From contig JBJTOP010000227.1 of NCBI GenBank assembly GCA_046074645.1, positions 40,590 through 104,589 of the forward strand: a stretch of DNA of 64,000 nt. Direction: 5' to 3'. Shown here one piece after another: positions 11,276 through 59,989 of the stretch; position 1 is the first letter of the stretch, and each line of letters begins with the position of its first letter. The translations under genes were made by a program, and so were the position numbers. Below the pieces are notes generated by a model, which had not been told where the DNA came from, searched no databases, and saw only the letters and a program-made list of their open reading frames with translations. Source of the DNA: Planctomycetaceae bacterium. Its GTDB lineage: Bacteria; Planctomycetota; Planctomycetia; Planctomycetales; Planctomycetaceae.

Positions 11276-12864
11276 TCGATGACCTTATTGCGGACGCGCG
11301 TGAAACCGGCCTGAGTGGCGGCATCAATCACGATGACTCGGGCTTCATGGTTGGAATCGGGATGGAGTTCCAGCTGGATGTCGGTGACGTCCGGGCTGGC
11401 GCTTTTTTCAGCTTTGAGGAGTTCGAGCAGTTCTCGGTAATTGGTGGCGCGTTTGGAGTCCTGCTCTTCGACGATCATGGTGTTGTCGGCGTCAACCTGA
11501 ACCTTCACGGCAGACTGTGACTCGTCCTGAACAACGACAGCAACGGAGACACCTTCGGTTTGTTTGGCTGGTGGGACGTCGAAGGCTTTCTGCATACTGA
11601 ATGAAGCGGTGACCATGAAGAAGATGAGCAGCTGGAAGGTCACATCGACGGCGGGTGTGAGGTCGATGGCGGCATTTTCCTGGGGGCGAGGGCGGCGTGG
11701 GGGTGGGTCGTCATCATCATCATTGTCGGCAGGGGCGACGGCGGCGGTCTGGAGCTGGAAGGGGGCGCGGGCGGAGCGGCGAGTTTCGGCGAGGTTAGCG
11801 GCTGCCATGGCTGCTGCCGAAGCGGGTTCGACGGAGTCTTCACCGAGGTCACGTTCGCTGGCGTCTGAGGCTTTGCCGGGCTTTTTGCGTTCCTGTTCAG
11901 ATTTGCGTTCGAGTTCTTCGAGACGGGGGAGACGAACGAGATCAAGAGAACGGCCCTGTTTGTGGGCAGCACTGAGGATGCGGATGTCTTCGAGGACTTC
12001 TTCGGCGGACTGATATCGCAGGGAGCGACGCTTGGCCATCATGCGGTGCACAAGCCGACAGACGATCTTCGGGAGTTCGGGATTTTTGTCTTCGAGTCTT
12101 GGGGGTGGATTATCGACGTGCTGAATGGCAATCTGGGCAGGTGTGGTGCCGCGAAAGGGAGTTTCTCCGCAGAGCAGCTGGTAGCAGGTGATGCCGAAGC
12201 TGTAGATATCGGAGCGAGGATCAAGTTCGCTCCCGTTTACCTGCTCGGGACTCATATATAGAGGTGTGCCCATGGTGACACCTCTCAGCCGGTCAGCGGA
12301 CTCACCCAGCTGGGCGAGCCCGAAGTCGGCGACTTTGATTTCACCCTTTTTATTGACGAGCAGATTTTCGGGTTTGATGTCCCGGTGCACGATTCCGGCC
12401 TGGCCGGAGGCTTTCAGAGCAGCCGCCACCTGTTTCATGACATGGAAGGCGGAGGTGAGATCGAGTTTGCCGCGTTCGCGGAGCAGGGTTGCCAGGTCCT
12501 GTCCCTGCACGAATTCCTGAGCGATGTAGTGATACTCGCCTTCCTGTCCGATTGTGTAGACCTGAACGATGTTGGGGTGATTCAGTCCCGCCGCCATCAT
12601 GGCTTCCTGGCGGAAACGTTTCAGCATGTCTTCACCGGAGAGGGCCATGAGTGAGGGTTTCATGACCTTGACGGCAACATATCGCTGCAGCGACGTCTGC
12701 TCGGCCAGAAACACTTCGGCCATACCGCCGCTTCCAAGCCTGCGAAGCAGGTGAAATTCGCCGAGCCGTTTGTCAGTCAGATCGCTCATGGAAGGGGCGT
12801 CAGGGGCTAGGGGCCAGGGTTTATTTTTCAGTGGTTCAGTGGTTGGTGTTGATGCGTGGATCAC
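11269..12864 (-). CDS. Ser/Thr protein kinase fused to a C-terminal ExbD/TolR (biopolymer transport) domain
   Basis: N-terminal Hanks-type kinase: GSGGMAEV (G-loop), VAVK (Lys), HRDIKPENLL (catalytic loop), DFGLA, and SPEQ (APE-like). It is followed by a Pro/Asp-rich linker DNDDDDDPPPRRPRP. The C-terminus AIDLTPAVDVTFQLLIFFMVTASF... is near-identical to the TM and start of the standalone ExbD at 12909..13361 (ITPMIDVTFQLLIFFMVTST). Confidence 0.8.
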   Translation of the reverse strand: MIHASTPTTEPLKNKPWPLAPDAPSMSDLTDKRLGEFHLLRRLGSGGMAEVFLAEQTSLQRYVAVKVMKPSLMALSGEDMLKRFRQEAMMAAGLNHPNIVQVYTIGQEGEYHYIAQEFVQGQDLATLLRERGKLDLTSAFHVMKQVAAALKASGQAGIVHRDIKPENLLVNKKGEIKVADFGLAQLGESADRLRGVTMGTPLYMSPEQVNGSELDPRSDIYSFGITCYQLLCGETPFRGTTPAQIAIQHVDNPPPRLEDKNPELPKIVCRLVHRMMAKRRSLRYQSAEEVLEDIRILSAAHKQGRSLDLVRLPRLEELERKSEQERKKPGKASDASERDLGEDSVEPASAAAMAAANLAETRRSARAPFQLQTAAVAPADNDDDDDPPPRRPRPQENAAIDLTPAVDVTFQLLIFFMVTASFSMQKAFDVPPAKQTEGVSVAVVVQDESQSAVKVQVDADNTMIVEEQDSKRATNYRELLELLKAEKSASPDVTDIQLELHPDSNHEARVIVIDAATQAGFTRVRNKVIEW

Positions 12865-32954: not shown

Positions 32955-33045
32955 TGCCGGTTAGCTCAATGGAAGAGCCCCAGTTTACCACTGGTTGTTG
33001 CGGGTTCGAATCCCGCACCACTCGCCGGTCACGCACCGGCACCCA
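32955..33045 (+). ncRNA. tRNA-like element with canonical D-arm and T-arm but non-canonical anticodon arm and an 18-nt insertion before the 3' acceptor strand (pseudo-tRNA or unusual tRNA)
   Basis: 5' acceptor tgccggt, then U8A9. D-arm gctc-aatggaa-gagc (A14, G18G19, A21 present). T-arm gcggg-ttcgaat-cccgc (canonical T54-psi-C-G-A-A-U, G53:C61). The perfect 7-bp complement accggca lies only at 33035-33041 and is followed by C + CCA. The 18 nt accactcgccggtcacgc intervene. The anticodon region cccagtttaccactggttgtt is 1-2 nt short; the best loop is tttacca (anticodon UAC, C37). Confidence 0.35.
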
Positions 33046-40580: not shown

Positions 40581-40594
40581 AGGACGCCGCGGCC

Positions 40595-50991: not shown

Positions 50992-52938
50992 ATGAACGCT
51001 CTGCTTAACTGGTTTGATGACCGTACCGGCGTCCGCAAACTTCTGCATGAAGCCCTCTACGAATCTGTTCCTGGCGGTGCTCGCTGGCGCTACGTCTGGG
51101 GCAGCACCCTTGTGTTCACATTCGTCGTTCAGGTGATCACCGGCTTCATGCTCTGGTCCGCCTACAGCCCCAGCACTCGCACGGCGTGGGAAAGCGTCTT
51201 CTACATCCAGTACGAAATGACTCTGGGCAGCGTCATTCGTGGCCTGCACCATTACTCCGCCCAGGCCATGGTGGTGCTCATGGCAATTCACCTCATGCAG
51301 GTCGTGATCGACGGCGCCTACAAAGCGCCGCGCGAAATGAATTTCTGGCTGGGAATCGTGCTGATGATGATCGTTCTCGGATTGTCTCTCACCGGCTACC
51401 TGCTTCCCTGGGACCAGAAAGGCTACTACGCAACTCAGGTAACCACCAACATCATGAGTGCCACTCCGGTAGTTGGGGCCGAAGTTCAGACACTGGCCCA
51501 GGGCGGCCGTGACTACGGCCATCTGACACTCACCCGATTCTTTGCCATGCACGCCGGTATCCTTCCCGCAATGCTGGTGGGGTTCCTTGCGCTTCACATC
51601 TATGTCTTTCGCCGACACGGGCTCACGGTACACGATCCCAAACATGCGCCCGATGCTCAGTTCTGGCCGGATCAGGTGCTGAAGGATGCCGTAGCCTGTC
51701 TGGGAGTGCTCTCTGTGGTGCTCATGCTGGCAGTGCTGCGCCCCGCTGAGCTCAGCGCCCCTGCCGACCCTGCGGTGAAATTCGACGCCGCCCGGCCCGA
51801 ATGGTACTTCCTCTTCCTCTTCCGGTTCCTCCGATTCCACGCCGTCGAAGCTCTGGGACTCACCTTCGGAGCCATCATTGTGCCAGGAATCATCATGGGA
51901 ATCATCGCGGTCATGCCGTTGACCGAGCGAGTTCTTGGGCGGGCCGGACACTTCCTCAACAAAGCCTTCATGTGGTCACTCGCCGTCGGCGTCGTGGTGC
52001 TCACCGTGATGGCCTTCTACGAAGACGCCAACGATCCAGGTCACCAGGCTGCTCTTGCAGAAGCTCATCGCGATGCAGGGCGAGCGATTGAGCTGGCGAA
52101 GAGCCCGGATCGGATTCCCGTGGACGGCGCTGTGGCTTTGCTGCGCCGCGATCCATTCACTCAGGGACCCCGCCTGTTCGCTCAGCACTGCGCCAGCTGC
52201 CACCGCTGGAATGGCCACGACGGCCGCGGAACTCTCGTCACTGACGCACTCAAACCCGGCGAATCCGGTGCCCCTCCCGTCACGCCCCCCACGGCAGCAG
52301 ACCTTGGCAACTTCGCAAGTCGTGACTGGATGAAGGCGATCCTCGTCGATTATTCAAACCACTTCCGCTGGCTGAAAAACGCCAGCTGGTACTCCGTCGC
52401 CAAAGAACAGCAGAGCAAAGGTGAATCCGTCGAGTTTCTCGATCCCGACGCATCCGAAATGGCCGACTGGACATCCGGCAACGCTGAGTCGCTCAAATCG
52501 CCCGAAAACGCGGACAATGTGACCGCGCTGGTTGAGTTTCTGTTTGCTGAAGCTGCACGCCCCGGGGCAGAATTAGATGCGGCACTTGTGGCCAAAGGAA
52601 AAGCCCTTGCCACCGAAGGCAACTGGGCAGGCGCACTCAATGGGACGTCCTGCAGTTCCTGTCACGACACGATCGGCCAGCCCTTTCCAGCGGAAGTCGA
52701 CGAGTCCAGCGGCAACGGATATCCAACCTTGGCAGCATACGGTTCAGGGGCCTGGCTGAAGGACTTTATCCGTCATCCGGATGCCCTGAGGCACTATGGT
52801 GCGAAGAACCGCATGCCGGCGTACTCCGCTAAGCAGCTTACCGACACCGATCTGGAGCTGCTTGTGCGCTGGATGACCGGAGACTATCCGAAGTCCACCG
52901 TAGCGGACTATCCTTCGATGCTGGAGCGAATTCCCTGA
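50992..52938 (+). CDS. Cytochrome b (b6-like) fused to a C-terminal dihaem cytochrome c domain
   Basis: N-terminal cytochrome b core with haem-ligand His in helices (RGLHHYSAQAMVVLMAIHLMQ..., FFAMHAGILP...ALHIYVF) and the PEW-like LPWDQ motif. The C-terminal soluble part has two CxxCH motifs (CASCH, CSSCH). Confidence 0.85.
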   Translation: MNALLNWFDDRTGVRKLLHEALYESVPGGARWRYVWGSTLVFTFVVQVITGFMLWSAYSPSTRTAWESVFYIQYEMTLGSVIRGLHHYSAQAMVVLMAIHLMQVVIDGAYKAPREMNFWLGIVLMMIVLGLSLTGYLLPWDQKGYYATQVTTNIMSATPVVGAEVQTLAQGGRDYGHLTLTRFFAMHAGILPAMLVGFLALHIYVFRRHGLTVHDPKHAPDAQFWPDQVLKDAVACLGVLSVVLMLAVLRPAELSAPADPAVKFDAARPEWYFLFLFRFLRFHAVEALGLTFGAIIVPGIIMGIIAVMPLTERVLGRAGHFLNKAFMWSLAVGVVVLTVMAFYEDANDPGHQAALAEAHRDAGRAIELAKSPDRIPVDGAVALLRRDPFTQGPRLFAQHCASCHRWNGHDGRGTLVTDALKPGESGAPPVTPPTAADLGNFASRDWMKAILVDYSNHFRWLKNASWYSVAKEQQSKGESVEFLDPDASEMADWTSGNAESLKSPENADNVTALVEFLFAEAARPGAELDAALVAKGKALATEGNWAGALNGTSCSSCHDTIGQPFPAEVDESSGNGYPTLAAYGSGAWLKDFIRHPDALRHYGAKNRMPAYSAKQLTDTDLELLVRWMTGDYPKSTVADYPSMLERIP

Positions 52939-52959: not shown

Positions 52960-53589
52960 TCACGGAAGCGACGTCAGCCGCTCTACGGACAGCACTTCAT
53001 GGAAGAACCACGGTTTGCCTGCCATCTTTTTCCAGATAGCGGTCTGCGATGGAAAACCGGTTCCGTCGACTTCGCGCCACTCACTGAAGCGGTAGATGTC
53101 GTCACGCCAGTCGATGCGGATAAGGCGAAAAGTCTGAGAGTCAAAGTGCAGGTCCATTGCGGGAGTCACGGTACCTGAAGCACGAACAGCCTGCGTGGTT
53201 GCCCCGGATTCCTGAACGCCGGGGATTTTTTGCAGCTGTGTGGCGGGGTCGTTAAGCAATCCCAGAGTCCAGGCCCAGACCACAAATTTTGCCGGTTCTG
53301 CTCCACGTTCTTTGCCTTCCACCGTCCAGATTTTCGGGGGCTGCAGGATGGAGTTGCGTGACTGAGATTTTGTTGAGGGTGCTTTTTCGGCGCCAGCATT
53401 GTAACGCTCGACCATTTTGAAGGTCGTGAGCAGCTTTTCGCGGCCACCGGCAGCCGCATTGACAGACTGTACCAGTTGTTTTGTGTCATCGCTGCCGGGT
53501 GTTCCGTTGCTGGTTTCCTGGGCAGCAGCAAACGGCGTCAGAACACAGATGCCAATGGCAATAAAGAAACAGTGATGGACTGCAATCAT
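52960..53589 (-). CDS. Secreted hypothetical protein
   Basis: Signal peptide MIAVHHCFFIAIGICVLTPFAAAQ. No recognised domain. Its start overlaps the stop of the HEPN gene by 4 bp. Confidence 0.5.
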   Translation of the reverse strand: MIAVHHCFFIAIGICVLTPFAAAQETSNGTPGSDDTKQLVQSVNAAAGGREKLLTTFKMVERYNAGAEKAPSTKSQSRNSILQPPKIWTVEGKERGAEPAKFVVWAWTLGLLNDPATQLQKIPGVQESGATTQAVRASGTVTPAMDLHFDSQTFRLIRIDWRDDIYRFSEWREVDGTGFPSQTAIWKKMAGKPWFFHEVLSVERLTSLP

Positions 53590-54353
53590 GCGGGGCCGCC
53601 AGCTCGAAAGGGGGGTGGGACAACGACTTCGTCGGCAGGTCGGACGGCGCGGGCGACAGAGTCGCCAGCGAGTTCCGGAGCTTTAAGCTGGATCTGAACA
53701 GAAGGTTCGCAGTAGGGGCAACTGGCGGTGTAAATGATACAGCCGCAGTTTGAGCATTCGCGGGGGCCGTGCTGATGCAGGGATTCCCGGGTGACCTGCC
53801 ACCATGCAATTCGCATGAGTGCGAGGAACACCAGAAAGGCCATCAACCATGACCATGGAGCGTGGCCAAATGCGATGATTGCGGTATCGAGTGCGATACC
53901 GCTGGCTCCGCAGAGCAGAAAAGGCCAGAGTTTTCCGAAGAAATCAGGTGCTTCGGGAGGACCGATTTCGTCGCGCCAGAGTCGTCCGAGTGATTCGCGA
54001 CGGAGTCGAGCGGCACGCTGAGCGGCGGGACTGCCAACGGCCACCAGGAGTCTTTCGATGCCGTCGGTGATGCGGTAAACATCGTTTTCGTGGATGTGCT
54101 GCTGATGAGCCCAGCGGTTGCGGTATTCGCGAAGTTCACTCACGAGACTGCGTTCGACGAAGCTGAGTTGGAAGCGGAAGACGTCGTTCCAGTGATCCCA
54201 CATGAAAACGAGGAGCGACTGGGCGTCCCACGACTGAATATCGGTGCGTGTCTGTTGATTTTCGGCCAGCAGTTCATCCGTAACGCAGCGAGCCACATAC
54301 GGCCTGAGGCCGATGGCAAGAACATCGAGTGCGTTGGAGACGGGATCGATCAC
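53586..54353 (-). CDS. Swt1-like HEPN domain protein with C-terminal TM hairpin and zinc-ribbon
   Basis: WDHWNDVFRFQLSFVERSLVSELREYRNRWAHQQHIHENDVYRITDGIERLL: the Rx4H HEPN motif (RNRWAH) in the conserved Swt1-HEPN context. It is followed by two TM helices and CSNCGCIIYTASCPYCE. Confidence 0.6.
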   Translation of the reverse strand: MIDPVSNALDVLAIGLRPYVARCVTDELLAENQQTRTDIQSWDAQSLLVFMWDHWNDVFRFQLSFVERSLVSELREYRNRWAHQQHIHENDVYRITDGIERLLVAVGSPAAQRAARLRRESLGRLWRDEIGPPEAPDFFGKLWPFLLCGASGIALDTAIIAFGHAPWSWLMAFLVFLALMRIAWWQVTRESLHQHGPRECSNCGCIIYTASCPYCEPSVQIQLKAPELAGDSVARAVRPADEVVVPPPFRAGGPA

Positions 54354-54703
54354 GGGATTGACTCATCGAGACTGAAGAACGGGCGGACCGAAAATTTCGG
54401 AGCCTTTGCGGAGTTGTGGTCATGTCGAGGTGCTGACAGTCAACAGATGTTGCAGGAGTAAGCGCAAGGTGAGAGGCAACTCGTCCCAATTAGACGTTTC
54501 AAATCTTCAAATGTCTGAGTCGGAAAACAGGATTCCGATCGATGTTATAGGAATCTGCGGAAGACTTTGTCGATTGTACGGGTAGGGTAATCTGTAGTGG
54601 AGCTGATTGGGGTTCAGGATGCCCGACGTTGTTGATTCGCCATCCCGTCAACATCTCGCTAAGATCCCTGCAACCCTGCAGTTCGGTCAGTCAGAGAAAC
54701 TGG

Positions 54704-55354
54704 AACATGGCAGAGCAACTGGCGTCCACCGATTATTCTTCCTTTGAAGACGATCAGCGAATGATCCGTCTGCAGGAGGGGGATGCGCGGGCGTTTGCAG
54801 AGATTGTGGCGGTCTGGCAGGCCCCGCTGCTGCGGTTTTTTTATCGCAGTACCCGGGATGCAGCGATATCTGAGGACCTGGTCCAGGAGACTCTGTTAAG
54901 GCTTTACCGCACCGCATGGGACTACCTTCCCCAGGGGCTGTTTCGCGGTTTCCTGTTCCGTATTGCCCGCAATCTGCTGATCGATCATTGTCGCAGGCAG
55001 GTTTCAGACCTGCTGGTGCGTTCCGTCCGCCACCGTCCGGGGTTTGGTGATGACGGCGACAGCAGCTGGCTATCAGAGCTGCCAGGATCTGCGCGGACAG
55101 CAGAATCGACCGCGGAGGACCATGAGGTGGACTTGCTTGTCCGCAGACTGCTGCAGGATTTCCCGGAGGAGCAGCGGGTGACATTCACTCTATATCACTA
55201 CGATTCTCTGACACTGCCGGAAATCGCGGACGCGACCAATTCCGGCCTTTCCACCACCAAGAGCCGATTACGTCTGGCCCGTGAAAAGCTGCGAGAGCAA
55301 TTGACAGCACGGGGCTTCGGTGAGGGATACCGCGAACCATTCGGCTCTATCTAG
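54704..55354 (+). CDS. ECF-subfamily RNA polymerase sigma-70 factor
   Basis: Region 2 (EDLVQETLLRLYR, FRIARNLLIDHCRR) and region 4 (LTLPEIADATNSGLSTTKSRLRLAREKL). Start set at MAEQLAST (54704). Confidence 0.8.
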   Translation, partial: NMAEQLASTDYSSFEDDQRMIRLQEGDARAFAEIVAVWQAPLLRFFYRSTRDAAISEDLVQETLLRLYRTAWDYLPQGLFRGFLFRIARNLLIDHCRRQVSDLLVRSVRHRPGFGDDGDSSWLSELPGSARTAESTAEDHEVDLLVRRLLQDFPEEQRVTFTLYHYDSLTLPEIADATNSGLSTTKSRLRLAREKLREQLTARGFGEGYREPFGSI

Positions 55355-55396
55355 TTGACCCACTCTTTATTTCCTTACACGCACGCGAAGCCCGTC

Positions 55397-55939
55397 ATGC
55401 CACACTTCAGCCGACTCACAGACATCATCACCTGCAGCCTCACTGACATGCTCAGGTCCGCTGAGAACCCTCGTCAGCTGCTGCAGGAAGTTCTTGCGGA
55501 AATGCAGGAGGGTCTGGCAGCCTGCCAAAGAAATGTGCGTTCCAGCACTGCCAACCACCAGCGACTTGAACGGGAAATTCAGGACTGTCTGTCGCAGATT
55601 GAAGACTGGCGCAACCGAGCTCGCCAGGCTCTGCAGAACGGCAGCGAATCAAGTGCTCGCCAGGCCCTGCAGCGTAAAGCCGAAATTGAAGCGCTCGTGG
55701 AAGGGCTCCGCCCGGAGCTCGAGGCGGCCGCATCCACCTGCCAGAATCTCATTCGCATCCGCAATGCACTCGATGCCCGATTTGCAGAGGCGCTGCGTTG
55801 CATGGAGGAACTCACCGGTACATCACTGCACCTGACCGCTGACAATTCGGTTGAAGCCGCACTGGCTCCAGCAATCACTCGCCGTAACGATGCCCTCGAA
55901 GCCGAACTCGAAGCACTCCGACGTGAACTTGGAAACTAA
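55397..55939 (+). CDS. pspA: PspA/IM30 family protein (phage-shock protein A / Vipp1-like)
   Basis: MPHFSRLTDIITCSLTDMLRSAENPRQLLQEVLAEMQEGL aligns with the PspA N-terminus ([28 protein letters not shown]...). Coiled-coil composition throughout. Confidence 0.7.
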   Translation: MPHFSRLTDIITCSLTDMLRSAENPRQLLQEVLAEMQEGLAACQRNVRSSTANHQRLEREIQDCLSQIEDWRNRARQALQNGSESSARQALQRKAEIEALVEGLRPELEAAASTCQNLIRIRNALDARFAEALRCMEELTGTSLHLTADNSVEAALAPAITRRNDALEAELEALRRELGN

Positions 55940-55991
55940 ACACACACCGAACTTTTTCCCACCTTTTCCGGCCCTGCAGGGGTTCCACGAC

Positions 55992-58112
55992 ATGCCGCAA
56001 TTTTCCGGAACACTGTCTTTACTGCTCTGCCTGTGGCTGCCTGCATCAGCCGCTCCATGCCCTCGTGCAGCTGAACCTCCAGCGATTGATTCGGTCGCGC
56101 TGACCCAAAACGTCGCTGGCCTCAATCAGCTTATTCAGCAGGGACGAATCTCCGGTTTTGTCACAGCAGTGCAGCACGGCAATTCGGAACCACTGGGATC
56201 CACAGGAGGAGACGCGGACATTGCCGGCAAACGTCCAATGCAGCAGGATACCATCTTCCGCATCGCCTCGCTCACCAAAACCCTTACAGCCACCGCGCTG
56301 CTGCTGCTTGTCGCCGACGGCCGCTGCGGCATCGACGATCCAGTTTCGCAGCATCTGCCCGCGTTCGCCCATCCCAGACTGGCAGACGGCAGCGAAGTTC
56401 GCGTACCGACAATCCGCGAGATTCTGACACATACCGCCGGCCTGCCAAACAATTCCGGACTGGATGGAGATCGCACTCTGGCACAGGAAGTGGATGCACT
56501 CGCAGGCCGGCCTTTTCAATTCTCGCCAGGCTCGAGGTGGCAGTACAGCAGCGGTCTGACGGTCGCCGGAAGACTGGTGGAAGTGCTCTCGGGTAAACCA
56601 TTCGAAGACTACCTCCGCGAGTCCATCACTGAACCACTCGGCATGCATGACACCACTTTCACGCTCAATGCTGCTCAGGCGGCCCGACTGGCAGTGACCT
56701 ACCAGCCCGGAGATGCTCGAGGAAGTCTTAAACCCGTTACGATTCCTGATCCCACAGTTCACCGTCTGCCCAATCCATCGGGCGGGCTGTATTCAACTGC
56801 GTCAGACATGCTGAAGTTCTACAACGCGGTGCTGAATGCTTTTCACGGTCGAGCAAATCGGCTGAAGCTGTCACAGCAAACGGCCCGGCAAATGCTCACA
56901 CCACACACCGGCAGTCTTGAAACCGGCTTCACTCCAGGCAACGCGTGGGGGCTGGGCTGGTGCCTGGTTCAGAAACCCCAGGGAGTGACTCGACTGCTCT
57001 CGCCGGACACCTTCGGCCACGGCGGCGCCTGGGGAACTCAGGCATGGATAGACCCTCACCGCAATCTGATACTGCTGCTGATGATTCAGCGGTCCGGGTT
57101 TGGCAACAGCGATGCATCCGAAGTTCGTGATGCGTTCAACGAGGCGGTGCTGAAGTCGTTCCGTGGCAACAGCCATCCCACCGCTCGAATCACCCCCTGG
57201 AACGGCCACGAGCAGGCGGTCGAGCTGACTAAAGGCAGCACGCGTGTCGTTCTGGGGCCGGAGACGGGTGGCCGAGTGCTCGAGTACACCATTGCGGGAC
57301 GCAACCTGCTCCATCTCGACGATCGTGAGTCTGCATGGAAGCCTGGCATGCCACCGCAGTCGTCTGCGGGACGGTTCGACTTTGGTCCAGAGCTGGTAGT
57401 CCCGCGTCATACGGCCATCTGGTCGGGACCCTGGACAGCAGAGATCACCGGTCCGCATTCGGCGCGACTGGTGAGCGTTCGTGATGCGGATTCCGGCGTG
57501 CAGCTGATTCGTGATTTTTCGCTGACAGAGGAAGCAGACCGCGAGTGGTCCGGGGCCGTCCTTGTCTGTCGGCAGGTCCTGATGAACACCGGCACTTCGG
57601 TCGTTGAGTACTGTCACTGGGGGCGATCGTTCCATCCGCAGCCGGGTATTTGTGTCATTCCGCTGGGGGATCGTCCGAGCCGTTTTCCTTCGAAGTATGT
57701 GATGTATGAAGAAGATGGCGGCATCAATCCGAAGGCGGTGGACCCACAGATCCGGGAACGCGACGGAGTGCTGGAAATTCTCGGCCCACCGCGACGTCCT
57801 AAGCTGGGCTTCGACAGCTATGCCGGATGGCTGGCCTTCGCAATGCCCGACAATCGGCTGTTTGTCAAGCGTTTTCCGGCGGATCCGGATCGGGTTTACA
57901 ACGAAGCTGCCGGTCTGACGATTTCAGTCTGGTATCCGCAGGGAAAGATGGTGGAGCTGGAGCCGATCGGCCCGCGGGAGCGACTGGTTCCGGGAGCAGT
58001 TGCGGAGTTCACGGAAACGTGGAGTGTGGCGGAGTTGCCATTCCCGGCGGCTGGCGAAAGCCTGGATCTGGCTCGTGTTCGCCAGCTGGTTGCTCCGGCA
58101 GGTGCGCGATGA
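55992..58112 (+). CDS. Secreted serine hydrolase of the beta-lactamase/PBP4-like family with large C-terminal extension
   Basis: Signal peptide MPQFSGTLSLLLCLWLPASAA. SxxK motif in FRIASLTKTLTATALL. YSS (Y-x-N-like) and HGG (K/H-T/S-G-like) motifs downstream. Confidence 0.7.
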   Translation: MPQFSGTLSLLLCLWLPASAAPCPRAAEPPAIDSVALTQNVAGLNQLIQQGRISGFVTAVQHGNSEPLGSTGGDADIAGKRPMQQDTIFRIASLTKTLTATALLLLVADGRCGIDDPVSQHLPAFAHPRLADGSEVRVPTIREILTHTAGLPNNSGLDGDRTLAQEVDALAGRPFQFSPGSRWQYSSGLTVAGRLVEVLSGKPFEDYLRESITEPLGMHDTTFTLNAAQAARLAVTYQPGDARGSLKPVTIPDPTVHRLPNPSGGLYSTASDMLKFYNAVLNAFHGRANRLKLSQQTARQMLTPHTGSLETGFTPGNAWGLGWCLVQKPQGVTRLLSPDTFGHGGAWGTQAWIDPHRNLILLLMIQRSGFGNSDASEVRDAFNEAVLKSFRGNSHPTARITPWNGHEQAVELTKGSTRVVLGPETGGRVLEYTIAGRNLLHLDDRESAWKPGMPPQSSAGRFDFGPELVVPRHTAIWSGPWTAEITGPHSARLVSVRDADSGVQLIRDFSLTEEADREWSGAVLVCRQVLMNTGTSVVEYCHWGRSFHPQPGICVIPLGDRPSRFPSKYVMYEEDGGINPKAVDPQIRERDGVLEILGPPRRPKLGFDSYAGWLAFAMPDNRLFVKRFPADPDRVYNEAAGLTISVWYPQGKMVELEPIGPRERLVPGAVAEFTETWSVAELPFPAAGESLDLARVRQLVAPAGAR

Positions 58113-58624
58113 CGGAGTTCCCTGGGGGCAGGTCATTCGGCGTGCTCCTGTCGTGGGAACTGCTGTTTCTGCTGGCAGCGCTGGTGGCGTGGTGCTTCGG
58201 AGGCTGGCCTGCACTGCTCCTGCTGCTGGTCATGCGTTGTCTCCGGGAAATCGCGGCACCCATCGGTCGAGAACTGGCCCTGCTCTCAATTCCTGGCTTC
58301 TGGCTGATGCTGCAGTGGTATTCAGCAGATCGGCGACTGTTCTTTTCGTGGACGATGGGACTGGCGGCCTGTGTGCTGACGTCGGGAGTGAATCGCAGGT
58401 GGGCAATACGGCTGGTCAGCGGCGCTGGGGTGGTCGCTGTCTTTCTGGCAATTCGTGTTCAGCAGCGGGCTCTGCCGCGGGTGCTGCTGATTGAAACGCT
58501 GTCCGCAGTCGGGATACTGGCCGCGTCCGCTCTGCTGCACGGAGGCAGGCCCGGGCATTTGTTTGCCGATGCAGTGGTGGTTGCGGCAGCATCGATTCTG
58601 GCTTGTTTTTCGCTGGCGATTTGA
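58109..58624 (+). CDS. Hypothetical integral membrane protein (about 5 TM)
   Basis: ATG 58109 overlaps the upstream stop (ATGA). Highly hydrophobic throughout. Confidence 0.5.
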   Translation: MTEFPGGRSFGVLLSWELLFLLAALVAWCFGGWPALLLLLVMRCLREIAAPIGRELALLSIPGFWLMLQWYSADRRLFFSWTMGLAACVLTSGVNRRWAIRLVSGAGVVAVFLAIRVQQRALPRVLLIETLSAVGILAASALLHGGRPGHLFADAVVVAAASILACFSLAI

Positions 58625-58636
58625 GGGGGCACACGA

Positions 58637-59989
58637 ATGCATCGTCGATATTTTCTGCAGTCTTCTGCCGGAGCTTCTTCATTTCTGCCGGCCGCATTTC
58701 AGGTCGATCGCGCGACGGCCGCAGCAGGTACTCCGGCGCTTGCTTCCGACCCTGCCGACGTCGTACAGGAAATGACAGAAAATCTGCCACCTGCGATGCA
58801 GCAGGCCCGCAATATCGCTCTTGATCTGCTCAAGCCCAGCCCTGCCCAGCTGGAACGCGGGCTGAGGTTGCACGCGGAATCAATCGTTTTCGACTCCTAT
58901 GGGTTTTCACCGCGAGCAGCCATCGATGGGACAACGCTCGGTTCCGTAATCGAAGCCGGAGGATCACAACAGGAGGTTGAAGACCTTCAGGAAGATATGA
59001 CGATGACGCGTTACGTCACTGACGCTTTGGAGCAGCGGGAGTATTTGGATGCGTGGCGAGTTTCGGGAGTGACCTGTGTGTTTCAAAATGCCGGTCAGGA
59101 GTGTCAGGATCCGCTGCGACTGCTGAAACGTCTGGCCCGCTTTACGTGGGTTACCGATATGCTCCGCAGCGACCTGAGCAAAGCAGTTGTTCCTGCTGAC
59201 ATTGAAGCTGCCAAACGCGATGGTCGTCGCTGCCTGTATTTCACGGGGAATGGCATTCCACTGACGCAGGAGTGGTCTACGCCGGAGGATGAGCTGGCAA
59301 ATGTGCGAATCTTCTTTCAGCTGGGTATCCGCATGATGCACCTCACTTATCAGCGGCGAAACATGATCGGTGACGGCTGCGGAGAACCCGGCAACGCGGG
59401 TCTGAGTGAGTTTGGCAGTACTGCAATCAGGGAGTTGAACCGGCAGGGTGTCATCCCTGACTGTGCACATTCGGGCTGGCGTACCAGTCTTGAGGCAGCG
59501 AGGGCATCAGCGAAGCCGGTGGTTGCCAGTCATTCCACCTGCGCAGCACTTCATCCGCATATCCGCAGCAAACCTGATGAGGTCATTCGCGCGATCGCCG
59601 ATACCGGCGGCTACATCGGAATCTGTTGTATATCTTCGTTTCTTCGCGGTACCGGAGATATCAGAGCTTTTCTGGATCATCTGGAATATGCGGTCAAAAC
59701 ATTCGGGGCGGAACACGTCGCCATCGGGACCGATACAGCGTGGTCCTCATCCAATTCCCGCGCTCAGTCCGCCCTGCTTCCCAAACGACCACGTGCCCGT
59801 CAACCATTCCGCAGTCTCTGGCCGGCTGATGATTTTCAAACGACGGAATTGATGACATCCAGCCTGAGCTGGATCAACTGGCCTGTATTTACTGTTGGAA
59901 TGGTCATAAGAGGCTTCAGCGATGATCAAATCCGGATGATTCTGGGAGGAAACGTGATGCGAGTTGCCCGGGAGACGCTGGCAGGTTGA
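58637..59989 (+). CDS. Membrane dipeptidase (peptidase family M19), Tat-exported
   Basis: Twin-Arg MHRRYFLQSSAG. M19 motifs HLTYQRRNMIGDG and DCAHSGWRTSLEAARASAKPVVASHS. Confidence 0.8.
   Translation: MHRRYFLQSSAGASSFLPAAFQVDRATAAAGTPALASDPADVVQEMTENLPPAMQQARNIALDLLKPSPAQLERGLRLHAESIVFDSYGFSPRAAIDGTTLGSVIEAGGSQQEVEDLQEDMTMTRYVTDALEQREYLDAWRVSGVTCVFQNAGQECQDPLRLLKRLARFTWVTDMLRSDLSKAVVPADIEAAKRDGRRCLYFTGNGIPLTQEWSTPEDELANVRIFFQLGIRMMHLTYQRRNMIGDGCGEPGNAGLSEFGSTAIRELNRQGVIPDCAHSGWRTSLEAARASAKPVVASHSTCAALHPHIRSKPDEVIRAIADTGGYIGICCISSFLRGTGDIRAFLDHLEYAVKTFGAEHVAIGTDTAWSSSNSRAQSALLPKRPRARQPFRSLWPADDFQTTELMTSSLSWINWPVFTVGMVIRGFSDDQIRMILGGNVMRVARETLAG

Follow-up and report, generated by a model that had tools for sequence, protein, structure and literature searches.

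Sigma factors of the extracytoplasmic function (ECF) type are typically followed by the gene for their anti-sigma factor, and a locus in which another protein holds that position raises the question of what controls the sigma factor and what the sigma factor controls. Such a locus lies in a 64,000-nt stretch of a Planctomycetaceae bacterium genome (assembly GCA_046074645.1, contig JBJTOP010000227.1, forward-strand positions 40,590 to 104,589), which we refer to throughout as the window. Between 54707 and 59989 on its + strand stand five densely arranged genes, encoding an ECF sigma factor, a PspA/IM30 homologue, a serine hydrolase, a membrane protein and an M19 dipeptidase homologue. An earlier note on this DNA, made from the letters alone, had suggested that PspA acts as, or with, the anti-sigma factor in an envelope-stress circuit controlling peptidoglycan/peptide hydrolases. 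Comparison across related genomes reveals that the conserved unit is the pair of sigma factor and short PspA, and not the five genes. We consider it highly probable that this pair is a dedicated ECF-PspA stress module.

A profile of short PspA, run against GTDB representative genomes (one for each species), yielded 240 related stretches, from which 80 loci were kept. All of their carriers are Planctomycetaceae, among them Fuerstiella, Schlesneria, Gimesia, Planctomyces and the cultured Thalassoglobus neptunius KOR42 (L075); together with the window, these PspA-anchored loci make up the 81 loci referred to below. An ortholog of the sigma factor is encoded directly upstream of pspA on the same strand in 80/80 loci, and the gap between the two genes, 12-217 nt, leaves no space for a further gene. 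Look-ups anchored on the sigma factor found PspA at the +1 position in three further contexts, and an independent sigma-anchored scan of metagenomes found it there in 3/3 family members, as compared with 0/61 outgroup ECFs (26-36% identity) for which the downstream sequence was long enough to tell. Among these 61, 18 carry an HxxxCxxC anti-sigma gene at +1, mostly with an overlap of 1-4 nt. The edge members of the subfamily, P0300 and P0314, are still sigma-linked, and P0377, which lies just outside, is unlinked. The flanking genes vary from clade to clade, with NAD kinase, a PQQ-type propeller, LptE, LarA-N or a HEPN protein upstream and GNAT, pyruvate kinase or RraB downstream. The juxtaposition of sigma factor and PspA, which the earlier note had seen in this one genome, is thus no accident of that genome. 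The pairwise identities of the two proteins correlate with r = 0.93, which indicates that the pair is inherited as a unit and that its genes have not been swapped between lineages. We discarded this mirror-tree correlation as evidence of contact, since it speaks for co-inheritance only.

The sigma product matches the Pfam models Sigma70_r2 (E 4.8e-13), Sigma70_r4_2 (E 1.7e-8) and Sigma70_ECF above their cut-offs, and scores 74.2 against TIGR02937 (cut-off 42.9). It consists of regions sigma-2 and sigma-4 only, with no N- or C-terminal regulatory extension, as expected from the ECF profile, and is 100% identical to a database protein (P0001) from a Planctomycetaceae metagenome-assembled genome (MAG). 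Its nearest solved structures are SigW (5wuq, E 3e-16), AlgU (6in7) and RpoE (1or7). The start had been placed at 54704, where the codon is AAC; the ATG lies 3 nt downstream. The pspA gene lies in the reading frame of sigma, whose stop codon is the TAG at 55352-55354, and a read-through fusion would have a 14-residue linker. Such in-frame arrangements occur in 37/81 loci versus 27 expected by chance, and no fused sigma-PspA protein was found among the database matches.

The +1 product is a genuine PspA that has lost roughly helix a4 (~40 aa) and keeps helix a0 and the a1-a2/3 hairpin. It matches PspA_IM30 (PF04012) with E 1e-20 and 74.7 bits (cut-off 33.9), its profile alignment to Vipp1/PspA residues 1-152 is gapless, and Vipp1/PspA entries of the PDB are matched at E 2.7e-20 to 2e-18. 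Its start at ATG 55397, already preferred in the earlier note, is supported by an N-terminus, MPHFSRLTDI, that is invariant across 24 homologues. In the AlphaFold2 (AF2) model (pLDDT 83.4), helices span residues 2-21, 25-80, 84-140 and 153-179, with a disordered linker, and Foldseek superposes the model on E. coli PspA(1-144) (4whe) with a root-mean-square deviation of 2.1 Å and a TM score of 0.89. The hydrophobic moment of helix a0 (residues 2-19) is 0.43, versus 0.42 in E. coli PspA, and 2% of shuffled sequences reach this value. The full a0-a5 architecture of ~220 aa is absent from this protein of 180 aa, the profile covering PspA positions 3-156 of 220; after residue ~142 come the disordered linker and then one short helix containing EVEAELEALR, which resembles the a5/a6 end motif. 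Short PspAs make up a discrete subfamily of 52 clusters (50% identity) at E <=1e-30, nearly all of 171-196 aa, beyond which scores fall to canonical PspAs of 220-230 aa. A related MAG (L015) also encodes a canonical 219-aa PspA (MGLFQRFNDIITANL..., 11947-12606, - strand) ~5 kb from its sigma/short-PspA pair, which marks the short form as an additional, specialized paralogue. The invariant N-terminus was considered as a sign of sigma binding and dropped, as a0 is conserved in PspA/Vipp1 generally.

Short PspA occupies the conserved +1 position typical of anti-sigma genes, in the 80/80 loci as well as in the sigma-anchored ones. A check of its product against anti-sigma and PspA profiles, proposed in the earlier note, came out for PspA only: none of the anti-sigma families (zf-HC2, RskA and others from Pfam and NCBIfam, at E up to 0.1) matches it, the only matches are PspA_IM30 and generic coiled-coil families, and the fold is the PspA hairpin and not an anti-sigma domain. 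The same note had named an adjacent canonical anti-sigma in orthologous loci as the finding that would speak against its idea, and none is conserved nearby. Among all open reading frames (ORFs) within 3 kb of the pair in the 81 loci there is no conserved HxxxCxxC protein, no conserved small ORF follows pspA across the loci, and the common neighbors of the pair have ordinary domains.

Three observations of individual clades belong beside this search. In L010 (3747-5279, - strand) and L013 (994-2529, - strand), a protein of ~510 aa with a typical zinc anti-sigma motif (HLSACSECRECL) adjoins an ORF of ~195 aa on the opposite strand; the two genes, the sole find of the HxxxCxxC scan, look like a separate ECF/anti-sigma pair close to the module and restricted to one clade, the sigma identity of the smaller product being assumed. 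A zinc-ribbon ORF 6 nt after pspA in L082 (5560-5787, 75 aa, Zn_ribbon_8, FmdB-like) was rejected as a conserved component, as it is not present in other loci. In L070 (5079-6227), and also in L072 and L073, the gene directly upstream of sigma, in the same orientation, encodes a receiver domain joined with an RsbW/SpoIIAB-like HATPase_c_2 domain; these loci belong to a Schlesneria-like clade that is likewise without the exact pspA motif described next.

When the sigma-pspA spacers were inspected with the pspA ATG as anchor, a promoter-like motif, T(G/C)ATCC-N16-CGTT, emerged at or just 3' of the sigma stop codon. The exact form T[GCA]ATCC-N16-CGTT is present in 50/81 loci, which span 21/30 sigma clades, at 25-141 nt ahead of the pspA ATG, and has only 7 exact copies elsewhere in ~1.9 Mb, counting both strands. 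The T, A and T of T.ATCC are invariant, though the search did not impose them. Relative to the stop codon the motif takes several registers, in the commonest of which the stop (TGA or TAA) is part of the -35 box, and coding constraint therefore does not explain it. With a position weight matrix (PWM) and a threshold at the 99.99th percentile of background, 56/81 loci pass before pspA and only 3/81 before sigma. Independent loci L090-L092 also carry the motif, and L081 and the edge member L088 have it with one mismatch. Its bipartite geometry is of the ECF promoter type, with two elements at a constant distance of 16 nt and CGT within the -10 element. Judged from the sequence, pspA looks like a dedicated target of the adjacent sigma factor; on the simplest reading, that factor would transcribe pspA from the motif and its own gene would not be autoregulated.

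The window belongs to the clades without this element. The motif is missing before pspA in the window, in L001-L006 and in the other clades that have a divergently oriented HEPN_Swt1 neighbor; over the 260 nt that precede the window pspA ATG, the PWM reaches 0.9 at best, versus 14-21 in 56 other loci. Gaps in the motif-less clades are mostly short, measuring 12-66 nt in the window clade and its closest relatives and 86-140 nt in clade 7 and L052, and the window spacer sequence is not conserved with L001. Given the absent motif and the 42-nt gap, the window pspA is probably co-transcribed with sigma, and the sigma, pspA, hydrolase, membrane protein and M19 genes are probably one transcript. Upstream of sigma lies a block conserved in the clade (Table 1), which has no second copy in the window when up to 3 mismatches are allowed and may be the promoter or an operator of this lineage's operon; against the family motif it scores no better than random windows. 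The AAC...CGT type of ECF promoter that the earlier note proposed to look for before the sigma and hydrolase genes was not found in the window. Two leads upstream of sigma were set aside: promoter discovery with bipartite k-mers, seeded expectation maximization (EM) and MEME-like EM returned clade-level conservation or drifted into coding sequence, and a CATTCCG element was not general. The HEPN neighbor of the window (53586-54353, - strand, divergent) is a Swt1-like protein (Pfam E 8.6e-25) with two hydrophobic segments and a C-terminal CxxC...CxxC ribbon; a HEPN neighbor is present in 17/80 loci and in L084-L087, largely in clades without the pspA-proximal motif. A regulon scan of the 64-kb window with the PWM gave no strong site, the best reaching 15.7 with a mismatch in the -10 element; matches scoring >=10 number 45 versus 21 expected from shuffles, and none lies near 54-60 kb.

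There are several possible explanations for the pairing. The one that we favor, and regard as rather probable, is a Psp-type membrane-stress system with a dedicated ECF sigma factor, in which PspA is both the effector and the inhibitor of the sigma factor and of which the window is a lineage-specific elaboration. The adjacent sigma factor would read the pspA-proximal promoter, and PspA would be its main product. PspA would bind damaged membrane as an effector through the retained helix a0 and the ESCRT-III hairpin, and, when not engaged at the membrane, would hold the sigma factor inactive, replacing a conventional anti-sigma. This negative-feedback logic would be the same as that of PspA-PspF in E. 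coli and PspA-ClgR in mycobacteria. In the window clade, the pspA-proximal promoter would have been lost and the five genes would be read together. A bolder proposal, which we put forward tentatively and which is plausible by analogy with PspA-PspF and PspA-ClgR, is that short PspA is an anti-sigma factor of a new kind: soluble and with the ESCRT-III fold, it would sequester the cognate ECF sigma and release it when a0 engages stressed membrane and PspA polymerizes. The name of a new anti-sigma class would be warranted only if sigma-PspA binding were shown.

Several points weigh against the favored explanation. We infer the binding of PspA to the sigma factor by analogy, and that the adjacent sigma factor reads the motif is an assumption. 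Short PspA keeps all effector elements, and its sequence demands no regulatory role. The pspA gene is not translationally coupled to sigma, which fits a pure target equally well as a feedback inhibitor. The window clade is without the motif both before pspA and before sigma. The search for an anti-sigma covers flanks of <=7 kb, and an unlinked one could lie elsewhere in the genomes.

The main rival explanation takes PspA as a dedicated effector target only, with the sigma factor set by other means, such as an unlinked anti-sigma, transcriptional control exerted by the upstream genes or proteolysis, and we regard it as possible, if somewhat doubtful. It accommodates the ECF-type promoter that pspA has to itself, the 12-217 nt gap as opposed to the -4/-1 overlaps of true anti-sigma genes, and the a0, hairpin and C-terminal motif of a membrane effector. 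A precedent is found in B. subtilis, where sigma W is controlled by RsiW. The same sigma W drives pspA (PMC3498285). Yet a non-autoregulated sigma factor without a co-encoded regulator needs post-translational control, and none is conserved nearby, while the coexistence of canonical full-length PspA in at least one related genome suggests specialization of the short form. Two unrelated Psp systems, moreover, use PspA as a feedback inhibitor of their own regulator. A second alternative assigns the motif to a different sigma factor or regulator and another regulon to the adjacent sigma factor, the adjacency reflecting either an action of PspA on the sigma factor only or a shared ancestry of the locus. 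The pair does persist in the window clade without the motif, no match of the motif to a published ECF promoter was obtained, and regulon members elsewhere were not found in the scan of the window; we nevertheless consider this improbable in view of the ECF-type geometry with its fixed spacer and CGT, the way in which the position of the motif tracks the sigma stop codon in 21 clades, and the scarcity of copies elsewhere.

The proposed feedback, with PspA as effector and sigma inhibitor, can be compared with known Psp systems. In E. coli, PspA is both an effector and the inhibitor of its own activator PspF (pspF || pspABCDE). As there, the regulator gene adjoins pspA and is not itself driven by a pspA-type promoter, pspA has a dedicated promoter of an alternative-sigma type, and the fold, amphipathic a0 and hairpin are the same. 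Unlike there, the regulator is an ECF sigma factor and not the sigma-54 enhancer-binding AAA+ protein PspF, the genes are co-oriented and not divergent, PspA is 180 aa long without a4, and its inhibition of the sigma factor is proposed by analogy. No PspF-type bacterial enhancer-binding protein and no PspB/PspC homologues were found among the neighboring products with Pfam and NCBIfam. In mycobacteria, where the operon is clgR-pspA-pspM, PspA has been proposed to form a complex with ClgR that the membrane protein PspM modulates, and Psp regulators have been described as phylum-specific (PMC13622631). The order of transcription factor, PspA and lineage-restricted membrane protein in clgR-pspA-pspM(-pspN) is shared by L005, L086 and the window, in the last with the hydrolase gene in between. 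In contrast to our pair, ClgR is an activator with a Cro-like helix-turn-helix and mycobacterial PspA is full length, and the orphan membrane protein of the window has no detectable similarity to PspM. In B. subtilis, sigW is followed by rsiW, which encodes a transmembrane zinc anti-sigma, and pspA is unlinked. Dependence of pspA on the ECF factor sigma W (PMC3498285) parallels the proposed control here, as a pspA operon (pspA-ydjGHI) is driven by an ECF sigma and SigW is the closest solved relative of the window sigma factor; the difference is that pspA is here at +1 and there is no RsiW-like gene.

Among ECF groups, ECF286/ECF292 with Asp23 provide a case of a conserved neighbor that is not an anti-sigma and may be a regulator and/or target (PMC7826278). 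ECF58 is confined to Planctomycetaceae and has no anti-sigma, with a DUF3470/4Fe-4S protein in its context (PMC7826278); our sigma factor has the same phylogenetic range, is likewise without a co-encoded anti-sigma and differs in having PspA as neighbor. The 2021 ECF re-classification with its supplementary group descriptions (1.3 million characters) contains neither PspA, IM30, PF04012 nor phage shock, and its group descriptions list no ...ATCC-Xn promoter (PMC7826278). A review on non-canonical ECFs is silent about PspA, a survey of Psp genomic contexts reports no ECF sigma or PspA-linked sigma, and full-text literature searches, which did not cover two planctomycete genomics papers, returned no description of an ECF-PspA pairing. 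The pair, which may be seen with equal right as a Psp system regulated by an ECF sigma or as an ECF group that has PspA for its +1 partner, thus appears to be undescribed.

ECF sigma factors are a major bacterial signaling family, in which a minority of groups are without a known regulator. The module would link the ECF and Psp fields, being the first case of a Psp system to which an ECF sigma factor is dedicated. If the inhibitory role is true, PspA would possibly be the first anti-sigma on the PspA/ESCRT-III fold, and membrane damage would be coupled directly to transcription without a transmembrane anti-sigma or a proteolytic cascade. For tests, the 240 related stretches, a defined candidate promoter and the cultured carrier Thalassoglobus neptunius KOR42 are at hand, together with natural variants that are without the pspA-proximal promoter or have an added membrane partner. 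The components may also provide an orthogonal set of sigma factor, promoter and inhibitor for synthetic circuits.

The features of the window locus are collected in Table 1. ORFs, Pfam and NCBIfam bear out the earlier description of five closely spaced genes on one strand with their predicted domains, except that its 'hydrolase trio' is actually two hydrolases and one membrane protein. Read from the sequence, the spacing is 42 nt from sigma to pspA, 52 nt from pspA to the hydrolase gene, -4 nt from there to the membrane protein gene and 12 nt on to M19. The gene after M19 has the convergent orientation. Scans of 53.5-60.5 kb for sigma-70 promoters and terminators gave results no better than chance.

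Table 1. Features of the sigma-pspA locus and its upstream region (positions in the 64,000-nt window)
Feature	Position	Strand	Basis or remark
Clade-conserved block GATTCGCCAT(C/T)CCG..CAAC..CTCG.TAAGATCC	54634..54670	+	invariant columns in six related upstream regions
ECF (group 4) sigma factor, 215 aa, RpoE/SigW-like	54707..55354	+	Pfam, TIGR02937, structural relatives
Sigma-pspA spacer, 42 nt	55355..55396	+	without the pspA-proximal promoter motif of most other clades
Short PspA/IM30 paralogue, 180 aa	55397..55939	+	PF04012, AF2 model, Foldseek
Beta-lactamase-fold serine hydrolase	55992..58112	+	PF00144
Orphan membrane protein, 171 aa	58109..58624	+	hydropathy; no Pfam/NCBIfam family
M19 membrane dipeptidase homologue; last gene of the cluster	58637..59989	+	PF01244

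The hydrolase matches Beta-lactamase (PF00144) at E 4.4e-73 and has an SLTK motif and a signal-peptide-like N-terminus, its start being most likely ATG 55992 rather than TTG 55851. Its C-terminal domain of ~300 aa matches DUF4380 weakly (E 0.0011, below cut-off), and it stays below the cut-offs of more specific models (AmpH, 119.8 vs 266; class C, 66 vs 415). The last gene had been described as a Tat-exported M19 dipeptidase; the M19 assignment holds well above threshold (Peptidase_M19, PF01244, E 1.1e-57, 196 bits vs cut-off 26), and the twin-arginine-like N-terminus HRRYFLQ comes from sequence reading only. Of the 80 genomic loci, only L001-L004 (4/80) have the hydrolase gene; two metagenomic relatives (the P0253 locus and L087) have it in addition, and L005 and L086 are without it. 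M19 is restricted to L001, L003 and L004 (3/80) and is absent from L005, L086, the P0253 locus and L087, in which the membrane protein is present. The beta-lactamase-fold hydrolase and M19 are lineage-specific cargo, recent add-ons to the pair. That all five genes form a functional unit controlling peptidoglycan/peptide hydrolases, as the earlier note had it, is very improbable and, as a description of the conserved unit, largely refuted: the dense arrangement in the window, the presence of the beta-lactamase-fold penicillin-binding protein gene pbpE alongside pspA in the sigma W regulon (PMC3498285) and the M19 and M28 peptidases encoded upstream of the pair in L081 speak for it, but the hydrolase does not extend beyond the closest relatives, M19 is rarer still, close relatives do without one or the other, a GNAT gene takes that position in 22/69 loci and others have pyruvate kinase or nothing related, and the hydrolase falls short of the AmpH and class C models. 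The peptidase genes of L081 (1-845 and 4508-5959), a single distant family member, may be a coincidence or reflect a loose peptidase association.

The membrane protein is the most faithful third component in the sub-lineage of the window. It has 5-6 hydrophobic segments by hydropathy and no family in Pfam or NCBIfam, and its gene starts, as described earlier, in an ATGA overlap with the hydrolase stop (58109-58112). Among 5.8 billion proteins, its homologues fall into only 13 clusters, none of them below 54% identity. Within the 80 loci its gene is confined to the four closest to the window and L005, and the contexts examined are exclusively sigma-pspA operons, in which its gene either follows pspA directly with a 4-nt overlap (L005, L086) or follows the hydrolase gene (the P0253 locus, L087). 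By analogy with PspM, PspBC or LiaI, it is a likely candidate for the membrane partner of PspA.

The GNAT gene that follows pspA in other lineages (for example L032, 7591-8589, and L083, 7400-8458) encodes a protein of ~330 aa with a C-terminal GNAT acetyltransferase domain and an N-terminal half without a family. A third, translationally coupled gene, it begins 2 nt after the pspA stop codon or overlaps it by 4 nt, occurs in 8/30 sigma clades and is absent in the window. Elsewhere in the 64 kb, the sole Rfam match is a tRNA at 32959-33019 (+ strand, 39.4 bits). At 50992-52938 (+ strand), an ORF of 648 aa combines a membrane domain that appears by eye to be cytochrome b-like with a C-terminal part containing two CxxCH haem-c motifs, and this ORF is kept as a neighbor in L002-L004.

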